From the sequence record OR896157.1: a stretch of 64,000 nt of DNA; one strand, 5' to 3'. The DNA comes from a phage. Below are positions 1 through 54,121 of this stretch, piece by piece (the first letter of the stretch is position 1; every line of letters begins with the position of its first letter). Made by a program: the position numbers and the translations under genes. The notes beneath the pieces were generated by a model, which did not search any database, was not told the origin of the DNA, and saw nothing but the letters and a program-made list of their open reading frames with translations.

Positions 1-1926
<1,926 letters not shown>

Positions 1927-30105: not shown

Positions 30106-30163
30106 ATTCACCTCGTTTATTGTCCCGAGCGGGTATGACAATTATATCATACCCTTTGTAAAG

Positions 30164-30394
30164 CTATTGACCGCGATACTCACGAATGAGTTCAGCCAAA
30201 GTTCGGTGGTAAAGTACTCCACCATTTTTACGAGTAATGTAGATTGCGCCATTGAACATTGCATCAATCATTTCACGTTGCTTTTGATTATCAGCATGAA
30301 TGTTGCGCGCCTTGAAGAACTCTTCTTTGTTTGCGAAACTTTCAATACGCTTGGTTGCGTCTGTTTGAGGGAACCATTCAATTACGTTAATCAT
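30164..30394 (-). CDS. hypothetical protein
   Basis: 76 aa; start overlaps stop of the HAD-like gene (ATGA). Confidence 0.55.
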   Translation of the reverse strand: MINVIEWFPQTDATKRIESFANKEEFFKARNIHADNQKQREMIDAMFNGAIYITRKNGGVLYHRTLAELIREYRGQ

Positions 30395-36275: not shown

Positions 36276-36622
36276 TATTGAATCACCAAATAGTTTGAAC
36301 GGTCAGTTTTAATCAGTGTAATTTCAGTATGAAGAGGAATAATCTCTTGTACCGTACCAGTGATTATAAACACCCCATCTTTAAAGCGTTTCTTTCCGTC
36401 GAAGAAAACATCACCGTAAAAACGTTCACCTACGATAGGAGAAGTCTGGTCTTTAGAAGTGATAAGGATTCCATCATACCCGTCGCAAGAATTCACCAGA
36501 CGGTCACACGCTAATACAGAACGAACGAATCCAACACCATCTTCAGTGAATTGAGATTTATCACCACAAGCATTGTAATGTTCTTTTCGGACACCATCGA
36601 AGATGTCAGTTAAATTCATCAA
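36275..36622 (-). CDS. hypothetical protein (cd-upstream small ORF)
   Basis: 115 aa; start/stop coupled with neighbours. Confidence 0.55.
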   Translation of the reverse strand: MMNLTDIFDGVRKEHYNACGDKSQFTEDGVGFVRSVLACDRLVNSCDGYDGILITSKDQTSPIVGERFYGDVFFDGKKRFKDGVFIITGTVQEIIPLHTEITLIKTDRSNYLVIQ

Positions 36623-43256: not shown

Positions 43257-43302
43257 AAATCCTCCTAAGGACCATCCGTGGTCCAATTATAAACTGAAAG
43301 AA

Positions 43303-45558
43303 TTAAAGCTTACATGCAGAACAATCTTCGGCTTTTGGTTTTTCGATTTCGAAATCATCGTTACCGGAACCATCACGAGTGTTATGATAGTACAATGTCT
43401 TACCACCAAAGTACCAGAAGTAAAGCAAGTCGTCCATCATAACAGACATTGGCACTTTACCTTTCTCATAATTCTGAGGGTCATAGTAAGTATTAGCTGA
43501 TGCAGATTGGCATACCCACTTCAACATAATAGCTACTTGAGTCAGATAAGGCTTGTTACCCTGCTTAGCAAGTTTCCATGCATAATCATAGAGGTCAGCA
43601 TTCAGTTCAACATTCGGAACTACTTGGTTGAAGCTTCCTTCTTTAGACTCTTTAATAGAGACTGGACCTCGTGGCGGCTCAATACCGTTTGTGCTGTTGG
43701 AAACCTGGGAGGAGGACTCACATGGCATGAGTGCGGACAATGTACTGTTACGGATGCCATATTGCTTGAGTTCTGCACGGAGTGCTTCCCAGTCACAAAC
43801 GTAATTCGGGGCCGCGAGCTGGTCAATTCTTTTATTGTACCAGTCGATAGGTAATTCGCCTCGAGACCAACGAGTGTCTTTATAATACTCGCAAGGTCCT
43901 TTTTCTTTTGCAAGTTTAATTGATGCTTTGATAAGTGCATATTGCAGCCTTTCAAACAGTTCGTGAGTCAAGTCATTTGCATCAGCATATGTAGCAAAGT
44001 TATCTGCTAACCAAGCAGCGTAGTTTGTTACACCAACACCCAATGCTCGACGTTTAAGAGCTTTCAAAGCTTCTTTAACCGGATAACCTTGATAACTCAA
44101 GAGGTTGTCGAGTGCTCGGACTTGGACTTCTGCGAGCTCGTTAATAGTTTCTTGGTCTTGCCAATCGAAGTTGCCGAGCACGAACGCAGACAACGTACAC
44201 AGCGCAATTTCTGCGTCTTCTGAGTAGACGTCTTTAGTAGGTAACGCAATTTCTGCGCAGAGGTTCGATTGCTTAATCGTAGCCACATCACGAATAAAAG
44301 GACCATAATTACCAACGTTATCTACGAAGTAAGGGTAAATTCGAGCAGTGCCTGAACGCTCAGTTAAGAATAACTCAATCAGTTCACGAGCTTTGACACG
44401 CTTCTTACGAACATCTGGATTCTTTTCAAGAGCTTCATATTGTTCACGGAACGCAGCAGCATCTTTGAAATAGTTCTCATAAAGGCGACCAGCATCAATG
44501 TCCGGAGAGAACAGAGTGATGTAATCATCTTTAATCAGACGTTCAAACATCAGGTCGTTGATTTGAACACCGTAGTCCAAGTGACGAATTCGGTTTTCAT
44601 CTACGCCTTTGTTGTTCTTGAGTACGAGGAGGTTTTCAACTTCCAAGTGCCAGATTGGATAGTACAATGTCGCCGCGCCACCACGAACTCCGCCTTGGGA
44701 ACAAGATTTAACTGCTGTTTGGATGTGTTTCCAGAAAGGAATAACTCCAGTATGCTTGACTTCTCCGAAGCCGATTTTTGAACCTTCTGCACGAATCATA
44801 CCTGCGTTAATGCCGATACCAGCACGTTTAGAGATGTACTCTACAATTGATTCAGCAGATTTGTTAATTGATTTCAGTGAATCACCAGCTTCAATAACAA
44901 CGCAAGAGCTGAATTGACGAGTAGGAGTACGAGCACCTGCCATAATAGGAGTAGGCAGAGAAATTTTCTTAGTTGACACGGCATCATAAAAACGAATAGT
45001 GTTCACCAAACGATTTTCACCATCGTCCTGATGCAGAGTCATACCGATGAGCATGAATGCAAACTGAGGAGTTTCGATGATTTGACCGGTGCTACGGTCT
45101 TTGACCAGGTATTTTTCAATGAGCTGCATTGTGCCAGCATACGTCATTTCAAAATCGCGATCATGAACAATTTTACTTTCAAGCAGAGCAATTTCTTCAG
45201 CAGACCATTTGGCAAGAATTTCTTTGTCATATTTGTTGTGATTAACACCAAATGAAATCTGGTCAATAAACGAACGAGGTTCAAACTGCCCATAAACTTG
45301 CTTACGGAGATTGAACATCGCCAGATTACTTGCTACATATTGATAATCTGGTTCTTCAATTGAAATCATTGAAGCTGCAACTTTAGTAGCTGCGCGTTGA
45401 ATGTCATAAGTTGTCATTCCATCTTGTAGATGCGGAACGATAGCTTGATATAGCTCATATGGGTCAACTCGGGTGTTTTCACAACCCCATTCCAGAACTT
45501 TGATAAGTTTTTCTGGAGTAAATTCCTGAGAGGTACCACTGGACTTAATTACTTTCAT
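43303..45558 (-). CDS. nrdA: ribonucleotide reductase large subunit
   Basis: 751 aa (T4 NrdA 754 aa); class Ia RNR features including C-terminal Cys pair. Confidence 0.96.
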   Translation of the reverse strand: MKVIKSSGTSQEFTPEKLIKVLEWGCENTRVDPYELYQAIVPHLQDGMTTYDIQRAATKVAASMISIEEPDYQYVASNLAMFNLRKQVYGQFEPRSFIDQISFGVNHNKYDKEILAKWSAEEIALLESKIVHDRDFEMTYAGTMQLIEKYLVKDRSTGQIIETPQFAFMLIGMTLHQDDGENRLVNTIRFYDAVSTKKISLPTPIMAGARTPTRQFSSCVVIEAGDSLKSINKSAESIVEYISKRAGIGINAGMIRAEGSKIGFGEVKHTGVIPFWKHIQTAVKSCSQGGVRGGAATLYYPIWHLEVENLLVLKNNKGVDENRIRHLDYGVQINDLMFERLIKDDYITLFSPDIDAGRLYENYFKDAAAFREQYEALEKNPDVRKKRVKARELIELFLTERSGTARIYPYFVDNVGNYGPFIRDVATIKQSNLCAEIALPTKDVYSEDAEIALCTLSAFVLGNFDWQDQETINELAEVQVRALDNLLSYQGYPVKEALKALKRRALGVGVTNYAAWLADNFATYADANDLTHELFERLQYALIKASIKLAKEKGPCEYYKDTRWSRGELPIDWYNKRIDQLAAPNYVCDWEALRAELKQYGIRNSTLSALMPCESSSQVSNSTNGIEPPRGPVSIKESKEGSFNQVVPNVELNADLYDYAWKLAKQGNKPYLTQVAIMLKWVCQSASANTYYDPQNYEKGKVPMSVMMDDLLYFWYFGGKTLYYHNTRDGSGNDDFEIEKPKAEDCSACKL

Positions 45559-46274: not shown

Positions 46275-47131
46275 ACAGCCATTTTTCCTTTGATTGTTGG
46301 GTGACTTTCATAGTTAACTAACTTGAAGTCTTCGATAACAGCAAATCGGTTTATCCACTTAAGCTGAGATGAAGTTTGCCAGCGCTCAAACTCAATTGGA
46401 AAATCAATTTCAAGCTCACAGAGTTCTTTTGGCTCTCGACGAAGAATTTCTTCGCACTGCTCAATATGATTTGAGTAGATGTGAGTGTTGCCCCCAGTAA
46501 ATATCAAATGACCAGGTTTTAAGCCAGTCATTTTAGCTACGATATGAATCAAAGCAGCATATGATGCAATATTGAATGGTAGACCAAGGAATACATCTAC
46601 CGACCTCTGGTACCACTGGAGGTCCAGAAACCCATTGCGTACGTTAAACTGATATATCATATGGCATGGTGGAAGCGCCATCTTAGGGATGTCTAGAGGG
46701 TTCCAGGCAGTCACAATTTGACGACGGTCATTAGGCAGTTCTTTAATTCGGTCAATAACCAAAGTCAATTGGTCAACACCCATAAAGTCTCGCCATTGCT
46801 TACCGTAGACAGGACCAAGCTCACCATCAACGTATCCCATTGAACGAGCTTGATTTTCGTAATTGTCGTCCCAGACAGTTTTACCATTTGTCGGAGAACC
46901 ATGCTGACGAAGACGTAAATCGTTTACATTTGTTGAACCAGATAGGAACCACAAAAGTTCTGCAATACATGCTTTCCAGGCAAGCTTCTTAGTAGTTACT
47001 GCTGGAAAACCTTGTTGCAAATCAAAACGAAGCTGAGTGCCAAACACAGCACAAGTGCCAGTTCCTGTGCGGTCATCAGTCACGTAACCTTCATCAAAGA
47101 TATGCTGAATTAGCTGTTGATATTGTTTCAT
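46271..47131 (-). CDS. td: thymidylate synthase (uninterrupted)
   Basis: 286 aa, same length as the spliced T4 Td product; continuous ORF. Confidence 0.95.
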   Translation of the reverse strand: MKQYQQLIQHIFDEGYVTDDRTGTGTCAVFGTQLRFDLQQGFPAVTTKKLAWKACIAELLWFLSGSTNVNDLRLRQHGSPTNGKTVWDDNYENQARSMGYVDGELGPVYGKQWRDFMGVDQLTLVIDRIKELPNDRRQIVTAWNPLDIPKMALPPCHMIYQFNVRNGFLDLQWYQRSVDVFLGLPFNIASYAALIHIVAKMTGLKPGHLIFTGGNTHIYSNHIEQCEEILRREPKELCELEIDFPIEFERWQTSSQLKWINRFAVIEDFKLVNYESHPTIKGKMAV

Positions 47132-47785: not shown

Positions 47786-48380
47786 AGACAGTCTCCGTTA
47801 ATGAAGTTAGTTCATCACAACGAACCCAAGACGTTTCTACCATTTGAAACGCATTTTCCCATGCCGGATATGAAATAAAGCTCATGTCCAGAGTGACATC
47901 AGAGTTAACCCGATGTTTCTTCTGTATTGACGTTTGGATAATACGGTCTGCGTATGGCTGAGCCGTCTCTAGAATCCTCTTGCCACCAATAACAGAATAG
48001 TTATCATTCGGAAGAAGACGAATACGAATGCCACCGTGATTTGTGTAGTAGTTATTGGTTTTGTCAAGGAAAGCTTTAAATTCTTCTGGACTCATGTAGC
48101 CGTCGGGAAATAAACCATCTTTTGCTTGAGCAAATGGACGATTCATATCTTGTACAACAATGCACTTGCGGCCTTTAAGGGCAGTAGGCATGCTCATCCA
48201 AGTTTTTGCACCCATGATAACGACAGTGTCTTTGGTACGTTTTGCAAAGTTCTGCATATCACGCTTGATATGACCCCACGGCAATCCGTCTTTAAGACCA
48301 AAAGCATATTCGTTTTGACCATTAACTGTCTTGGTTCCACAATAAGCATATACAAGTTGTAGCATTATGATTTCCTGCAT
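47772..48380 (-). CDS. frd: dihydrofolate reductase
   Basis: 202 aa; DHFR-like LPW motif region and nucleotide-binding Gly-rich segment; position upstream of td. Confidence 0.9.
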   Translation of the reverse strand: MQEIIMLQLVYAYCGTKTVNGQNEYAFGLKDGLPWGHIKRDMQNFAKRTKDTVVIMGAKTWMSMPTALKGRKCIVVQDMNRPFAQAKDGLFPDGYMSPEEFKAFLDKTNNYYTNHGGIRIRLLPNDNYSVIGGKRILETAQPYADRIIQTSIQKKHRVNSDVTLDMSFISYPAWENAFQMVETSWVRCDELTSLTETVYERV

Positions 48381-50341: not shown

Positions 50342-51262
50342 TTACAGACCGTTCAGCAGTTCGTCGAGGTCTTCATCACCGCTGGAGGCAGAACCGCCAG
50401 TTTCCATGAAGTCTTCAGCCGGTGCTGATTTCTGAGAACCTGCGTTAAAGTTCGCGAGGTCATCTTCAAAGTTGTCCAGGTCTTCACCAACCTTATCAGC
50501 CTGGGCAGAAGCGCGAGACGCGGCAGTACCCATAGCAGATGTACCCATAACCTGAAGGAATTTCTTCTGGTTATCTTCGAAAGATTTGAACTGGTCTTTC
50601 GCAGTCAGAGTAGACAGGTCAACCATTTGTTCCTGCAGCTGTGCTTGATAAGCTTCATCTTCGATGTTAGGAATCTCAGATTGGCCAAGGAACTTGGATT
50701 CATCGTAGTTGCTGAAACCAGATACTTTCTTAACTTTCAGAACGAAGTTAGCACCTTCAAACGCACAAGTTACGTCGATTGGTGTTTCGCCCATTTCAAC
50801 GTCAACGGCAACCATTGCATTGATTTTGTCCCAAATTTTCTTACCGAAACGATATTTGAAGACTTTACCTTCGTTTTCTGGAGCAGCCGGGTCTTTAACA
50901 ACCAGGATGTTCGCGTAGTAAGAAGTTTTGCGTTTCAACAGCTTGTATTCTTCGTTGTTGGTGTTATATGAATCATTCTTGGACAGATATTGACATACTG
51001 GGCAAGAATCATAATCACCGTGGGTAGAAGTACAGTTTTCAATGTACCATTTACCACCTTTCTTGAAGCCGTGATTCACTAGAACAGCGAATGGTACGCC
51101 TTCATCACCTTTACCTGGCAGGAAACGGATGACCGCTTGACCGTTACCAGCATTATCCAACTTCAGTTTCCATTCACCTTTATCTTCGGAGTTAAAACCT
51201 TTAGAACCAGACAGGGAAGCCAGTTGGGAAGCCAGGGCAGCAGGATTTTTACGCTTAAACAT
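50342..51262 (-). CDS. 32: single-stranded DNA-binding protein gp32
   Basis: 306 aa (T4 gp32 301 aa); zinc-site residues in ...[15 protein letters not shown]...; acidic C-terminal tail. Confidence 0.96.
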
Positions 51263-51337
51263 AGATTTTTACCTTTTTAATATTGACAGTTGGTGCTGCA
51301 ACGTTTGTCCTTGCAGCTGGACGACGAGATAATTATA
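51263..51337 (-). promoter_or_regulatory. gene 32 mRNA leader (candidate translational operator)
   Basis: Leader has hairpin CUGCAA-GGACAAACG-UUGCAG followed by AU-rich AAUAUUAAAAAGGUAAAAAUCU before the AUG; T4 gene 32 is autoregulated at such a leader. Confidence 0.4.
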
Positions 51338-51976
51338 TCAATGTATAATTAAAGCGTTCTTGAATATCTGAAAATCTTTATCTAACTTAGGATTCCATCC
51401 ATTCTTAAACATATTTATTATGCAATTTCCGGTTGTAGAAGTGCAATATTTACCAGTTTCTTTACTCATTAAAACCGGGCCTAAACGAGAATGTCGATGA
51501 GGACCGAAATACCAATCATAATAAATTTCAGAATTCAGCCAGTATAAATGAGCATTCCTTTTTATAGTATGTGGATGCTCCCATGGTTTAAGTCCCTTTA
51601 AATGAGAAGATTCTTTCATTTTAGACTTATGTTTTTCGGTCTTTGGAACTCCCTTTAAGCACGATTTAAAAGTTCCTTTTGCTTGAGATTTATTGAAAAA
51701 CATTTCTGATTTAACAACATTCCACTTAATGTGGAGCTCTTCTTCAATATCTAATGAAGAATCACCTTCATATAAAATATGAACTTTTGGTTTTTCCAAT
51801 TCAATAGCATCTAAAAATCTTTGTTGATAGCAAGAGCTCCAATATTCTTTACCAGATGAATCATATATTACATTGTTTTCAATATAGCATTCTTGTTTTG
51901 AACCGATATAAAAATATGGAGGAGTTCTTGCATTTAATCTTGATTCAAAGGTGAACCAATAAGTTACTCCTTTCAA
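51338..51976 (-). CDS. putative homing-endonuclease-like protein at the T4 segG (32.1) position
   Basis: 212 aa, visibly A+T-richer than flanking genes; inserted between genes 32 and 59; N-terminal GVTYWF...YFYIGS is only loosely GIY-YIG-like. Confidence 0.45.
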   Translation of the reverse strand: MKGVTYWFTFESRLNARTPPYFYIGSKQECYIENNVIYDSSGKEYWSSCYQQRFLDAIELEKPKVHILYEGDSSLDIEEELHIKWNVVKSEMFFNKSQAKGTFKSCLKGVPKTEKHKSKMKESSHLKGLKPWEHPHTIKRNAHLYWLNSEIYYDWYFGPHRHSRLGPVLMSKETGKYCTSTTGNCIINMFKNGWNPKLDKDFQIFKNALIIH

Positions 51977-52626
51977 TACTTACAATCCTTAACAGTTTTA
52001 ATAAATAACTGCTTTGCTTCTTCTCTATCTACATTCAATATCTTTCGATACGCATGCAACTTCGTAGAGTAGTTTGACCAAACTAAGTTATTGGTTGCAG
52101 TGTCATGTTTATCTATCAAATCCAGAAACGAGTCCAGAATTATAAAAGTCTCGAAAGAGATGATATTACTTTGAAGTAATTTGAATATGTATGACGAGTT
52201 AACCTTATCATTATAATCAAATAATTCATTAAGCGATTTAACTTCAACTTTCTTGCTGAAATAGTAAATATTGCGAACATCTTCTTCGAAGTTCGACTTG
52301 ATTAATTTCAGCTTACCAATATATTCACGATAAAACACTAACGCATCTGCATCGGAAATTTCACCAATCCAGGCGTCCTGGTTAGCTACCAGGTTACTGA
52401 TGAATATCAAGGTCAATTCTTTTAATGTGTACTTCTCAGATAACTTCTTGAAGAAGTATTTGTCACGACGTTTATCGTAAGCCTTATCTGATACTCGCAT
52501 GCACCAGTTGTACTTGACAACATCATATCGACCGTTGAAGTGATTCTTCAACATCAAGTACAACTTGTACACAGACTTACCGTCGATATATCGTCCACCA
52601 TTTGGTGGCATGCGCAATTTAATCAT
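51973..52626 (-). CDS. 59: gp59 helicase loader
   Basis: 217 aa, same length as T4 gp59 and near-identical N-terminus as recalled (MIKLRMP..G.RYIDGKSVYKLYLM...). Confidence 0.95.
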   Translation of the reverse strand: MIKLRMPPNGGRYIDGKSVYKLYLMLKNHFNGRYDVVKYNWCMRVSDKAYDKRRDKYFFKKLSEKYTLKELTLIFISNLVANQDAWIGEISDADALVFYREYIGKLKLIKSNFEEDVRNIYYFSKKVEVKSLNELFDYNDKVNSSYIFKLLQSNIISFETFIILDSFLDLIDKHDTATNNLVWSNYSTKLHAYRKILNVDREEAKQLFIKTVKDCKY

Positions 52627-52922
52627 AACAGGAAATCGAGTGTATTTGTCTTTTGCTGTTTACTAAAGGATGGACGCAATAAATTATCGTCTAATGCTTC
52701 GCTCATAATCTTTTCAATTATATTACCAGGAATATATTTAGCGAATGCAGTTTCAGGGAAAGAATTTTCTTCTAACCAGTGTGTAGCAGCTTCAAGATAA
52801 CTCATTCCATGTTCATTAACTAAAGCTTCGATAGCGAAGCCATTGTTCTGTTTATCTACCAATGTAGTAACAGAATCCGGCTTTTCAGCCGGAGTTTCAT
52901 CATTTAGGGAAAACAGTGTCAT
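52623..52922 (-). CDS. 33: gp33 late transcription co-activator
   Basis: 99 aa from internal ATG; C-terminus ...LLRPS...KTNTLDFLL matches T4 gp33 as recalled. Confidence 0.85.
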   Translation of the reverse strand: MTLFSLNDETPAEKPDSVTTLVDKQNNGFAIEALVNEHGMSYLEAATHWLEENSFPETAFAKYIPGNIIEKIMSEALDDNLLRPSFSKQQKTNTLDFLL

Positions 52923-53175
52923 ACAGCTCAATCGCCTCTTCAGTTTCGGCTTCAAATTCATCACGAGCAGATTTGAAGTACAGAGTCAGCAGTCGGTTAA
53001 ACATCTTACCGTCAACGCCAAGTTCATCTTTAGCGCGGTCACGAATGTCTTTGATTAGAACCTGGAAACCAGAGATTTTCAGTTTATGGTCAGCAGCTTC
53101 AACAATTAGTTTCTTGAGGTCAGCACCATGTACTGCTTCGTCAAATTCAACTGGTTCTTTCTTTTCTTTAGCCAT
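52900..53175 (-). CDS. dsbA: DsbA double-stranded DNA-binding protein (late transcription)
   Basis: 91 aa; ...HKLKISG...LIKDIR.RAKDELGVDGKMFNRLL... matches T4 DsbA as recalled. Confidence 0.88.
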   Translation of the reverse strand: MAKEKKEPVEFDEAVHGADLKKLIVEAADHKLKISGFQVLIKDIRDRAKDELGVDGKMFNRLLTLYFKSARDEFEAETEEAIELYDTVFPK

Positions 53176-53182
53176 AATTTCC

Positions 53183-54121
53183 TCAGAAATCGTTAACGTT
53201 TTTGGTTAATTTTGAAAGTCCTGATTTCACGAAGTAAGGATAGATTTTACCACGTGGAGGTACTTTATAAGAGTTATAATAATCCAGAATTTGATTAGCA
53301 ATATCTTCTGGAATATAATCGAAGTCGATAAGCACTCGGTTTTCATAGAAACGTTTGAGCTGCTCACCTTCAAGAACAGTTGTGATATCTTCAGCGTCAC
53401 AACATTGTTCAACAAATGCAGTTTTAGTTGGTGGAGTGCGCTCACCTTCTACACGAGTGTACCAGAAATCAGAACGCACAGTAATTGCTGCTACGTTATC
53501 TTTCTTATCGCCCTTCACTACTTTCATCATGCAATCAAGTGCAGGAGAACCTGTCTTCGCTTTAACAAATTTCTTCTGCATTGGAGACCACTGAGTTACA
53601 TTCGGATATTTGTGCAACTGAGTAAAGTCACCATCCGATGAAACGATAAGTACTTTATTACCTTCTAGCGAAAGCTTTTTAGTAAGGACCGCAATATGGT
53701 CATCCGCTTCCATTTTATCAATATTCATCATATGATAAGGCATGTACTTTTCAAATTCTTCGATTACGGTACGAATACCTTCGAAATAACCTTCCCAGTC
53801 CCATTCAGATTCTTCACGGCCATCAGCACGGTTCTTTTTGTAGTAATAAGCTTTATCGCGACGCCAATAGCCGGACTTGGCATTATCACAACAAATAATT
53901 ACCTTGTTGTAGCCATCCTTACGGAATTTGAAAGCATTAAATTTCAGAGTGCTCAATACCAGATGACGAAGCATCGGAGTAGTGATTTTCTCTTTATCTT
54001 TGAAGGTGTGCATCGCTGTCGCCAATGCGATTTGAGACAAGTCGACTAGAATGTAACCATCTTTTACTTGGTCTTCTTCGTCGAACAGACAGTTTAAATT
54101 AGACATTAGAACCTCGTTCAT
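53183..54121 (-). CDS. rnh: RNase H (5'-3' exonuclease / flap endonuclease)
   Basis: 312 aa (T4 RNase H 305 aa); ...GYWRRD.AYYYKKNR...EADDHIAVL...SSDGDFTQLHKYPNV.QWSPM.KK... matches T4 as recalled. Confidence 0.93.
   Translation of the reverse strand: MNEVLMSNLNCLFDEEDQVKDGYILVDLSQIALATAMHTFKDKEKITTPMLRHLVLSTLKFNAFKFRKDGYNKVIICCDNAKSGYWRRDKAYYYKKNRADGREESEWDWEGYFEGIRTVIEEFEKYMPYHMMNIDKMEADDHIAVLTKKLSLEGNKVLIVSSDGDFTQLHKYPNVTQWSPMQKKFVKAKTGSPALDCMMKVVKGDKKDNVAAITVRSDFWYTRVEGERTPPTKTAFVEQCCDAEDITTVLEGEQLKRFYENRVLIDFDYIPEDIANQILDYYNSYKVPPRGKIYPYFVKSGLSKLTKNVNDF

Follow-up and report, generated by a model that had tools for sequence, protein, structure and literature searches.

What kind of gene has settled between two replication genes of a Karamvirus, how did it arrive, and what did it bring along? 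These questions are raised by an open reading frame (ORF) of 212 amino acids (aa) in phage record OR896157.1, of which we analyzed a stretch of 64,000 nucleotides (nt), hereafter the window. The ORF lies between gene 59, encoding the helicase loader gp59, and gene 32, encoding the single-stranded-DNA-binding protein gp32. We conclude that it is very probably a free-standing homing endonuclease gene of the SegG family (SegE/SegG-type GIY-YIG), acquired by a minority Karamvirus lineage through homologous recombination with a diverged donor. The initial annotation had proposed a homing endonuclease at this position, which is that of segG in T4, and the proposal is borne out by homology to T4 SegG, a GIY-YIG-like fold, a presence/absence polymorphism and a recombination scar; together with regulatory motifs, these are the observations on which our account is built.

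The ORF is free-standing, reads in the same direction as both neighbors and differs from its surroundings in base composition. Its G+C content is 30.8%, against a window mean of 40.3% (standard deviation 2.8%, over 639-nt intervals). Intervals equally low in G+C make up 0.44% of the total, and all the lowest ones map to the ORF, which is the minimum of the 64 kb. The first description of an A+T-rich ORF at this junction was thus accurate to the coordinate (Table 1). No paralogue of the ORF was found elsewhere in the 64-kb window.

The ORF encodes a member of the SegG family

The protein matched phrog_7504, a family annotated as homing endonuclease (PHROGs, E 4.4e-63), and aligned with T4 SegG over its full length in a tblastn search of GenBank phages (34.8% identity, residues 4–202, E 6e-25). 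Closer homologues, with 57–73% identity, are found in KM16 (Moonvirus), UPEC07 and SP18 (Gaprivervirus), Potts1 (Marfavirus) and MHG19 (unassigned Tevenvirinae, 66%), in every case at the 59/32 junction and in the orientation seen in the window; Dhakavirus has a related copy at the same junction. An alignment of the window protein, T4 SegG and the homologues contains 47 invariant columns. The initial annotation had recognized a loose GIY...YIG-like pattern at the N-terminus and took it as a possible sign of a divergent or different-family endonuclease. The pattern is real and corresponds to the SegG family signature, VYWFTF..R....PPY(F/Y)YIGSK....GKEYWSSC, which reads VTYWF...YFYIGS in the window and VYWF...YYYIGS in T4 SegG. 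The protein does not belong to a different family; the looseness is the normal SegG/SegE-type variant.

We aligned 52 family members and used the alignment both for an AlphaFold model of the window protein and for calling conserved residues. The model has a mean predicted local distance difference test score (pLDDT) of 90.7 and predicts strands at residues 3–9 and 22–27, which bear the GIY- and YIG-type motifs. A Foldseek search of BFVD returned 24 matches at E ≤ 1e-3, named as SegG, Gp32.1, GIY-YIG or NUMOD proteins, in keeping with the nuclease fold expected at the outset; the same search of the PDB found nothing. Residues Y6, Y23-I24-G25, K27, Y45, S48, E78 and N95 show little or no variation across the 52-member family. 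The YIG motif is exact and invariant in all 52, and GIY appears as V-T-Y6 with a nearly invariant Tyr. A weak hhalign match (E 0.064) to I-TevI, whose sequence was checked against 1MK0/1LN0, covers the Glu region alone and pairs E78 with the catalytic E75; N95 would be the equivalent of I-TevI N90, judging from spacing. By its predicted fold and four of the five catalytic positions (all but Arg), the protein is a member of the GIY-YIG superfamily, and by sequence, locus, fold and population behavior it is a member of the SegG family.

The C-terminal half diverges more strongly from T4 SegG (22% identity) than from its own clade (55–75%). The window protein itself has no NUMOD3 or NUMOD1 match in Pfam. 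Distant family members do match NUMOD3 (12 of 52), NUMOD1 (6 of 52) and SegE_GIY-YIG (3, of which one, P0052, exceeds the cut-off of 25 with 26.0 bits). Residues 108–121 (KGVPKTEKHKSKMK) align with the KxVPKSExHKxK segment of distant members that have NUMOD3 matches, and may thus resemble NUMOD3.

Translation of the ORF can begin in frame only at the TTG at 51976, which is preceded by AAGGA and shares the letters TTGA with the TGA stop codon of gene 59. The UPEC07 homologue has the same TTG/TGA overlap and starts at the equal alignment column; segG of T4, KM16 and Potts1 starts with ATG at an equivalent or adjacent position. The ORF is full length, and its size agrees with that of the homologues.

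Separately, Klebsiella phage KP179 (L019, 1667–2329) has a 220-aa endonuclease at the 59/32 junction, with a 3-nt gap to gene 32. Its N-terminal domain is SegG-like (~51% identity, residues 4–111) and its C-terminal half is unrelated, which looks like domain shuffling inside the SegG family.

A recombination scar in gene 59

The window belongs to a Karamvirus (CC31-like) whose locus is 99% identical to that of Enterobacter phage EcL8g, an unannotated record that also bears the ORF. The known carriers of this allele are the window, EcL8g and one Logan metagenome contig (L014). The ORF is missing from 29 records at 95–97% identity and from 3 more at ~88.5%. In Karamvirus genomes without a segG-like gene (segG-less), such as CC31, the gene 59 stop codon lies 10 nt from the gene 32 ATG, compared to 710 nt in the window, a net gain of 700 nt.

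Aligning the window with eight segG-less Karamviruses revealed a diverged tract at the 3′ end of gene 59. Compared to UMC02, the last 148–149 nt of the gene contain 32 differences and the preceding 504–505 nt contain none. The differences fall in 24 codons, where 19 are synonymous (including a TGA/TAA change of stop codon) and 5 are non-synonymous. Identity to the segG-less relatives is 79–83% in every case within the tract and 92–100% just upstream of it. We then defined as segG-linked any position where the window and EcL8g have one letter in common and each of the seven segG-less genomes compared has a different one. Within ±5 kb there are 24 such positions, and 21 of them fall at 51970–52113. 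The lone candidate in gene 32, at 50504, is not common to the Logan contig, and no segG-linked difference in gene 32 distinguishes the window carriers from their segG-less relatives. Gene 32 is native from its ATG onward, with 0–3 differences per 50-nt bin.

The imported unit measures ~860 nt, from about 52120 to about 51263–51285, and comprises the recoded end of gene 59, the ORF, a putative middle promoter and a putative gene 32 operator. Its right-hand junction to native Karamvirus sequence lies within the gene 32 initiation region (AAGGTAAAA..ATG). An absence of any recombination scar in relatives without the ORF would have spoken against the homing proposal; the scar exists, and so does a presence/absence polymorphism with co-conversion of the flank (32 records without the gene, 2 others with it), as expected of a homing endonuclease. 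The initial annotation had also expected local gene conversion of gene 32. Conversion at the locus is supported by the scar, which sits at the 3′ terminus of gene 59; the expected conversion of gene 32 was not seen.

Two other ideas about the imported segment were discarded. Transposition was rejected, as no target-site duplications or direct repeats were found flanking the insert. A shift of the gene 59 tract toward A+T, like that of the ORF, was not supported, with 31.5% G+C in the tract compared to 32.9% in CC31.

Smaller traces of exchange are visible around the locus. The window and EcL8g already differ mosaically within gene 32, and they differ densely at 46400–46610, 48000–48237 and 53327–53936 (rnh, and small ORFs that follow frd), a sign of additional mosaic replacements close to the locus. 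The segG-less phage EnC07 has the window variants GATTTGATA and CCAATAACTTGGT within 52090–52121, and the segG-less phage RZH has the window variants GTAGATAGAG at 52024–52030. These runs could be remnants of conversion, or of recombination with phages carrying a segG-like gene (segG+) without the gene being kept.

A candidate target site in gene 59

At its outer edge the tract meets an altered site (Table 1). Relative to CC31, the window has TTTGATAGAT in place of ACATTATAAAT, and GATAGATA in place of TATAAATA, the latter with an Asn172Asp change. In segG-less Karamviruses, TTTCTGGACATTATAAATAAACATGAC holds an exact late-promoter box, TATAAATA, which is gone from codons 167–175 of the window and from the entire insert.

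The same outer boundary recurs in other genera. In all five pairs of a segG+ and a segG-less genome, one from each of five genera, the diverged gene 59 tract starts at codons 168–173 (nt 504–519 of 654). In Marfavirus (Potts1 compared to contig L025), 28 of 145 positions differ in the last 150 nt of gene 59; on the gene 32 side there are no differences in the spacer and first ~75 nt, and at most 2 per 50 nt thereafter. In Moonvirus (KM16 compared to CF1), the gene 59 count is 22 of 126, with 7 differences in the first ~90 nt on the gene 32 side. Gene 59 is likewise diverged in Dhakavirus (NC-G compared to WG01), where the gene 32 side has no clear tract, and in Gaprivervirus (UPEC07 compared to P896), where gene 32 has no differences. 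The Gaprivervirus pair has 5 substitutions within 12 nt at the site, scattered ones before it and over the next ~70 nt, and a renewed climb in divergence solely at the extreme 3′ end of gene 59. As a control, T4 compared to T2 and RB68 has no gene 59 tract, and its differences are scattered through gene 32.

At the boundary, the segG-less alleles of four genera have TATAAATAAACATGA in common, in the form AT(T/A)ATAAATAAACATGA, and those of Karamvirus, Moonvirus and Gaprivervirus contain the exact T4-type late box TATAAATA. The segG+ alleles read TTTGATAGATAAACATGAC in the window, TTTAATCGATAAACATGAC in KM16, CATCATTGATAAGCATGAC in Potts1 and TATAATAGACCAACATGAT in UPEC07. We rejected Asp172 of gp59 as an exclusive marker of segG+ genomes, as Asp is likewise present at this position in the segG-less T2, RB68 and WG01.

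Liu et al. (2003, J Mol Biol 334:13) reportedly described T4 SegG, formerly ORF 32.1, as a free-standing GIY-YIG homing endonuclease. The published target of T4 SegG is gene 32 of T2 (PMC2988022, Table 1), which agrees with the lack of a gene 59 tract between T4 and T2. Free-standing endonucleases can cut at a distance from their own gene (PMC2988022). With close to an even chance, though just short of it, the enzymes of the window clade (window, KM16, Potts1, UPEC07 and NC-G types) recognize or cut gene 59 near codons 167–175, ~130–150 base pairs (bp) from the insertion point, and the tract would be the product of obligatory conversion between the break and the gene. The substitutions at the site in segG+ genomes would then confer self-immunity. 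The target so predicted differs from that of T4 SegG, because the scar is in gene 59 rather than gene 32 and T4 compared to T2 has no gene 59 tract. Our literature search found no paper linking SegG to gene 59.

Two considerations tell against this assignment. The comparative patterns on which it stands include substitutions that also destroy the late-promoter box, an alternative cause for them; and a gene 32 tract, if there was one at first, could have been lost in subsequent recombination, given the mosaic gene 32 of the window and EcL8g. The main rival reading, which we think rather unlikely, is that the enzyme cuts gene 32 like T4 SegG, or another site, and that the changes at codons 168–173 were selected to remove a native late promoter, TATAAATA, that after insertion would drive late transcription through the endonuclease gene, or else mark a preferred crossover point. 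The substitutions do destroy an exact TATAAATA box in four genera, and the box is a real signal class, occurring 13 times in the window compared to 3.4 expected; the documented target of T4 SegG is gene 32, and the cassette has a promoter-like element of its own. A gene 32 target, however, would leave the carrier unprotected, since gene 32 has no segG-linked difference. Moreover, the Dhakavirus tract starts at the equal place even though the segG-less allele there lacks TATAAATA, the putative DNA-binding half is only 22% identical to that of T4 SegG, and the T4/T2 control is without a gene 59 tract.

As a further observation on this junction, Citrobacter phage Ursula (L042, 1240–1899) carries another homing endonuclease gene there (phrog_314, 660 nt). 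In a DNA-level comparison by megablast, the gene remained unaligned to the KM16 segG region (75% of the KM16 query covered). Ursula has its own diverged gene 59 stretch and yet keeps the TATAAATA site. Endonucleases of several families thus seem to favor the 59/32 junction as an insertion hotspot.

Predicted gene 32 control signals next to the ORF

The ORF is separated from gene 32 by a 75-nt spacer (51263–51337) that was imported with it. T4 middle promoters have a MotA box (TGCTTtA) ~12 nt upstream of a TAnnnT −10 element and no −35 element. The sequence cGCTTTA-N12-TATAAT at the end of the ORF fits this architecture. We counted 4 occurrences of GCTTYA-N11-13-TATAAT in the window, always on the minus strand, which is that of the locus genes, compared to 0.03 expected. 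The motif CGCTTYA recurs 12–13 nt from TATAAT in UPEC07 and MHG19 though the overlapping protein sequences differ. The element is probably a gene 32 promoter brought by the cassette, to judge from these motifs. A scan for sigma-70 promoters found none on the coding strand, as expected for middle and late promoters. The three other matches in the window, at 30141–30164, 36363–36387 and 43286–43309 (minus strand), are candidate MotA-type middle promoters.

Downstream of this element, the spacer contains a putative translational operator of the T4 gene 32 type, a pseudoknot with the sequence GUCC A GCUGCAA GGAC AAACG UUGCAGC, followed by ACCAACUGUCAAUAUUAAAAAGGUAAAAAUCUAUG. When the window was aligned with T4, LQ5 and Potts1, pairing held in each of the 44 base-pair cells, compared to at most 48% pairing in slid controls, and compensatory changes were seen in 7 of 11 pairs; this support comes from four sequences only, the same four from which the structure was derived. 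The window hairpin is present in the minimum-free-energy fold, while the equivalent CC31 leader, which lies inside gene 59, is structureless (z 0.03). A search of Rfam found no gene 32 pseudoknot family. Its sole result was a sub-threshold match to the DUF2815 RNA motif at 51260–51311 on the minus strand (23.2 bits compared to a gathering threshold of 41.2, E 0.24), which overlaps the leader and pseudoknot and is probably due to chance.

Shamoo et al. are said to have described, in 1993, an autoregulatory mRNA pseudoknot of gene 32 in T4, T2 and RB69. The T4/T2/RB69 operator and that of the window share a two-stem architecture, and in both cases ACCAACUGU comes next, with an A/U-rich tract containing the Shine–Dalgarno sequence; compensatory changes are seen in both stems. 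The window pseudoknot differs in being, as the sequence comparison suggests, cargo of an endonuclease cassette in a genus otherwise without a 59–32 spacer or hairpin; it is a putative target of gp32. The segG-less Marfavirus contig L025 has the pseudoknot natively, and the structure is therefore older than segG in some lineages and foreign to Karamvirus. The T4 gene 32 operator is described in PMC535899.

The ends of other insertions offer related observations. The spacers upstream of gene 32 in MHG19, KM16 and NC-G retain AAAACTGTCAAAAACTGTAAA, the terminal motif of gene 59, as a non-coding copy downstream of segG, which suggests that the end of gene 59 was duplicated upon insertion in these phages. 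An AACTGT motif also occurs within the operator tail of T4, LQ5 and the window (ACCAACTGT). In Potts1 (L003, 3124–3145), the last SegG codons (...NKCKI*) are identical to the original gene 59 3′ end in L025, and the end of the Potts1 ORF is thus a chimera with the recipient's gene 59 terminus. A chimeric ORF end of this kind, formed with the recipient gene 59, has been speculated for T4 (PMC535899).

Activity, retention and origin

Nuclease activity, present-day mobility and the target site are what we infer from these observations, and a plausible sequence of events can be drawn. Translation of the ORF would be coupled to that of gene 59 through the TTG/stop overlap. By analogy with T4 SegG, SegE and SegF, the enzyme would, during mixed infection with a segG-less relative, break both strands of the segG-less genome near the locus, and repair of the break would copy from the segG+ genome both the cassette and the sequence between break and gene. 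In the recipient, the carried promoter and operator would keep the essential gene 32 expressed and autoregulated despite the splitting of its native 10-nt junction.

Several results weigh against the gene being an imported, functional homing endonuclease. The TTG start implies a low start efficiency, and hence low expression of the ORF. An equivalent of the catalytic Arg (I-TevI R27) could not be assigned, as no alignment reaches the position; the nearly invariant R13, the invariant K27 and the variable R53 are candidates. The window protein was unmatched in searches of Pfam (E ≤ 1), NCBIfam and PDB sequence profiles (with a 5-sequence profile), including the Pfam families GIY-YIG (PF01541) and SegE_GIY-YIG (PF19835). 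T4 SegG likewise has no Pfam match (E ≤ 10) and no NCBIfam or PDB match, and because it is an experimentally proven enzyme, the missing match reflects a limit of the profiles and is uninformative. Searches of GenBank phages, IMG/VR, JGI metagenomes and a set of 5.8 billion proteins yielded, apart from EcL8g and the Logan contig, no copy above 74% protein identity that could be the donor. The donor was probably an unsampled, more distant Karamvirus relative, because the tract encodes a nearly unchanged Karamvirus-type gp59 C-terminus.

These results leave room for a stranded or domesticated copy, imported by ordinary recombination, inactive as a nuclease and kept as a DNA-binding protein or for the adjacent embedded gene 32 promoter and operator. 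The TTG start and the unassigned Arg would suit such a copy, as would the fact that only three carriers are known in all. In T4, gene 32 promoters are embedded in segG and favor retention of seg genes (PMC2988022), and the same logic would apply to the window cassette by analogy. An inactive copy is nonetheless improbable. The ORF is full length with every family-invariant residue present, UPEC07-type copies also start with TTG, and T4 SegG, with an equal motif variant, is an active enzyme. The ratio of non-synonymous to synonymous substitution rates (dN/dS) is 0.10–0.21 compared to the closest homologues that allowed an estimate of dS (KM16, ENA contig L015 and Potts1), with synonymous sites saturated; for MHG19 and UPEC07, saturation of dS allowed no estimate. 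The low ratio indicates that the lineage has been under purifying selection, and the three known copies of the window allele differ by 3 changes, all synonymous.

An ancestral presence of the gene in Karamvirus, with loss from every other member sequenced, is very improbable: homologues do sit at the corresponding locus of several Tevenvirinae genera, but the 32 other records, including two lineages at 88% identity, all have the tight 10-nt junction, G+C content reaches its lowest point in the window at the ORF and spacer, and the drop in identity from 92–100% upstream to 79–83% within the tract is the signature of import rather than of deletion elsewhere. Acquisition of an endonuclease gene from a diverged donor remains our preferred reading.

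Relation to known endonucleases and significance

The window gene resembles T4 segG in the full-length homology of its product (35%, E 6e-25), the 59/32 locus, orientation, size (212 aa compared to 210 aa in T4), the variant motif VYWF...YYIGSK...KEYWSSC, its presence or absence among close relatives and the gene 32 control signals at or next to its 3′ end. It differs in the C-terminal half of the protein, the TTG start and the scar in gene 59. Furthermore, its pseudoknot lies 14 nt past the stop codon, whereas that of T4 overlaps the ORF, and its cassette delivered a pseudoknot operator and promoter to a genus lacking both.

Closer still are the annotated, uncharacterized homing endonuclease genes of KM16, MHG19, UPEC07, SP18 and Potts1, with 57–74% identity in both domains at the same locus. 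KM16, Potts1 and UPEC07, each compared to a segG-less relative, have a gene 59 tract of the window type. Unlike the window and Potts1, the KM16, UPEC07 and MHG19 spacers have no pseudoknot. The phages belong to different genera, and none of these genes was the direct donor, because no copy is closer than 74%. In contrast to the I-TevI catalytic domain (1LN0/1MK0) and T4 SegE (PF19835), the window protein has an insertion of ~25 residues that separates the YIG strand from helix 1; it lacks a zinc finger, an I-TevI-type linker and an identified Arg equivalent, and its gene is free-standing, not intron-encoded. Related genes are thus already annotated in several GenBank phages, and the new elements are the allele in Karamvirus and the target predicted for it by comparison.

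In T4-like phages, some of which are candidates for therapy against Enterobacter and Klebsiella, marker exclusion and mosaicism bear the stamp of free-standing homing endonucleases. The SegG family has entered the 59/32 junction in at least 6 genera, and the start of the gene 59 tract is shared by the five pairs compared. The tract pattern provides a testable target-site prediction for an uncharacterized SegG clade, unlike the published T4 SegG site. A fuller scenario, to which we give somewhat less than an even chance, is that the clade switched its target relative to T4 SegG to the late-promoter-containing TTTCTGGACATTATAAATAAACATGAC of gene 59, that its mobile unit obligatorily includes a recoded, immune gene 59 end, and that it moved a T4-type operator and middle promoter into Karamvirus. 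The locus is also an example of a selfish gene that brought cis-regulatory cargo, a promoter-like element and a gp32 operator pseudoknot, into a lineage lacking them. Such cargo bears on how gene 32 autoregulation diversified, a question raised in PMC535899. If both the target switch and the cargo transfer are true, a selfish endonuclease has rewired how an essential replication gene is transcribed and how its translation is autoregulated; if the protein is inactive, the locus is just another homing endonuclease gene of the annotated type.

Feature coordinates and neighboring genes

Table 1. Positions of the segG-like ORF, its protein domains, the imported elements and the flanking genes in the window
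Feature	Position	Strand	Details
segG-like ORF, 212 aa	51338..51976	minus	ORF listing; TTG start overlaps gene 59 stop
N-terminal GIY-YIG-type nuclease domain	residues ~1–105		predicted from model and alignment
C-terminal helical, putative DNA-binding region	residues ~110–212		model: helical, helix-turn-helix-like domains
Imported (co-converted) gene 59 3′ end, codons 169–218 (probable)	51973..52120	minus	comparison with segG-less Karamviruses
Altered site at outer tract edge, gene 59 codons 167–175	52102..52128	minus	window TTTCTGGATTTGATAGATAAACATGAC; segG-less Karamviruses TTTCTGGACATTATAAATAAACATGAC
MotA-type middle-promoter-like element, GCTTTA-N12-TATAAT	51332..51355	minus	overlaps segG stop; ~10 nt upstream of pseudoknot
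T4-type gene 32 translational-operator pseudoknot (putative)	51295..51322	minus	stem 1 GUCC/GGAC, stem 2 GCUGCAA/UUGCAGC
Unstructured A/U-rich gene 32 initiation region (ACCAACUGUCAAUAUUAAAAAGGUAAAAAUCUAUG)	51260..51294	minus	with Shine–Dalgarno sequence and ATG
Gene 59 (gp59, helicase loader), upstream neighbor	51973..52626	minus	Pfam T4_Gp59_N E 1e-48, T4_Gp59_C E 1e-41
Gene 32 (single-stranded-DNA-binding protein), downstream neighbor	50342..51262	minus	Pfam gp32 E 4.9e-60

Beyond gp59 and gp32, searches of Pfam and PHROGs identified gp33, DsbA and RNase H as further neighbors. The gp33 ORF of the window (52623–52964, minus strand) has a GTG start and 113 aa, compared to 99 aa (300 nt) in the CC31 annotation; the true gp33 start in the window is probably an internal ATG.

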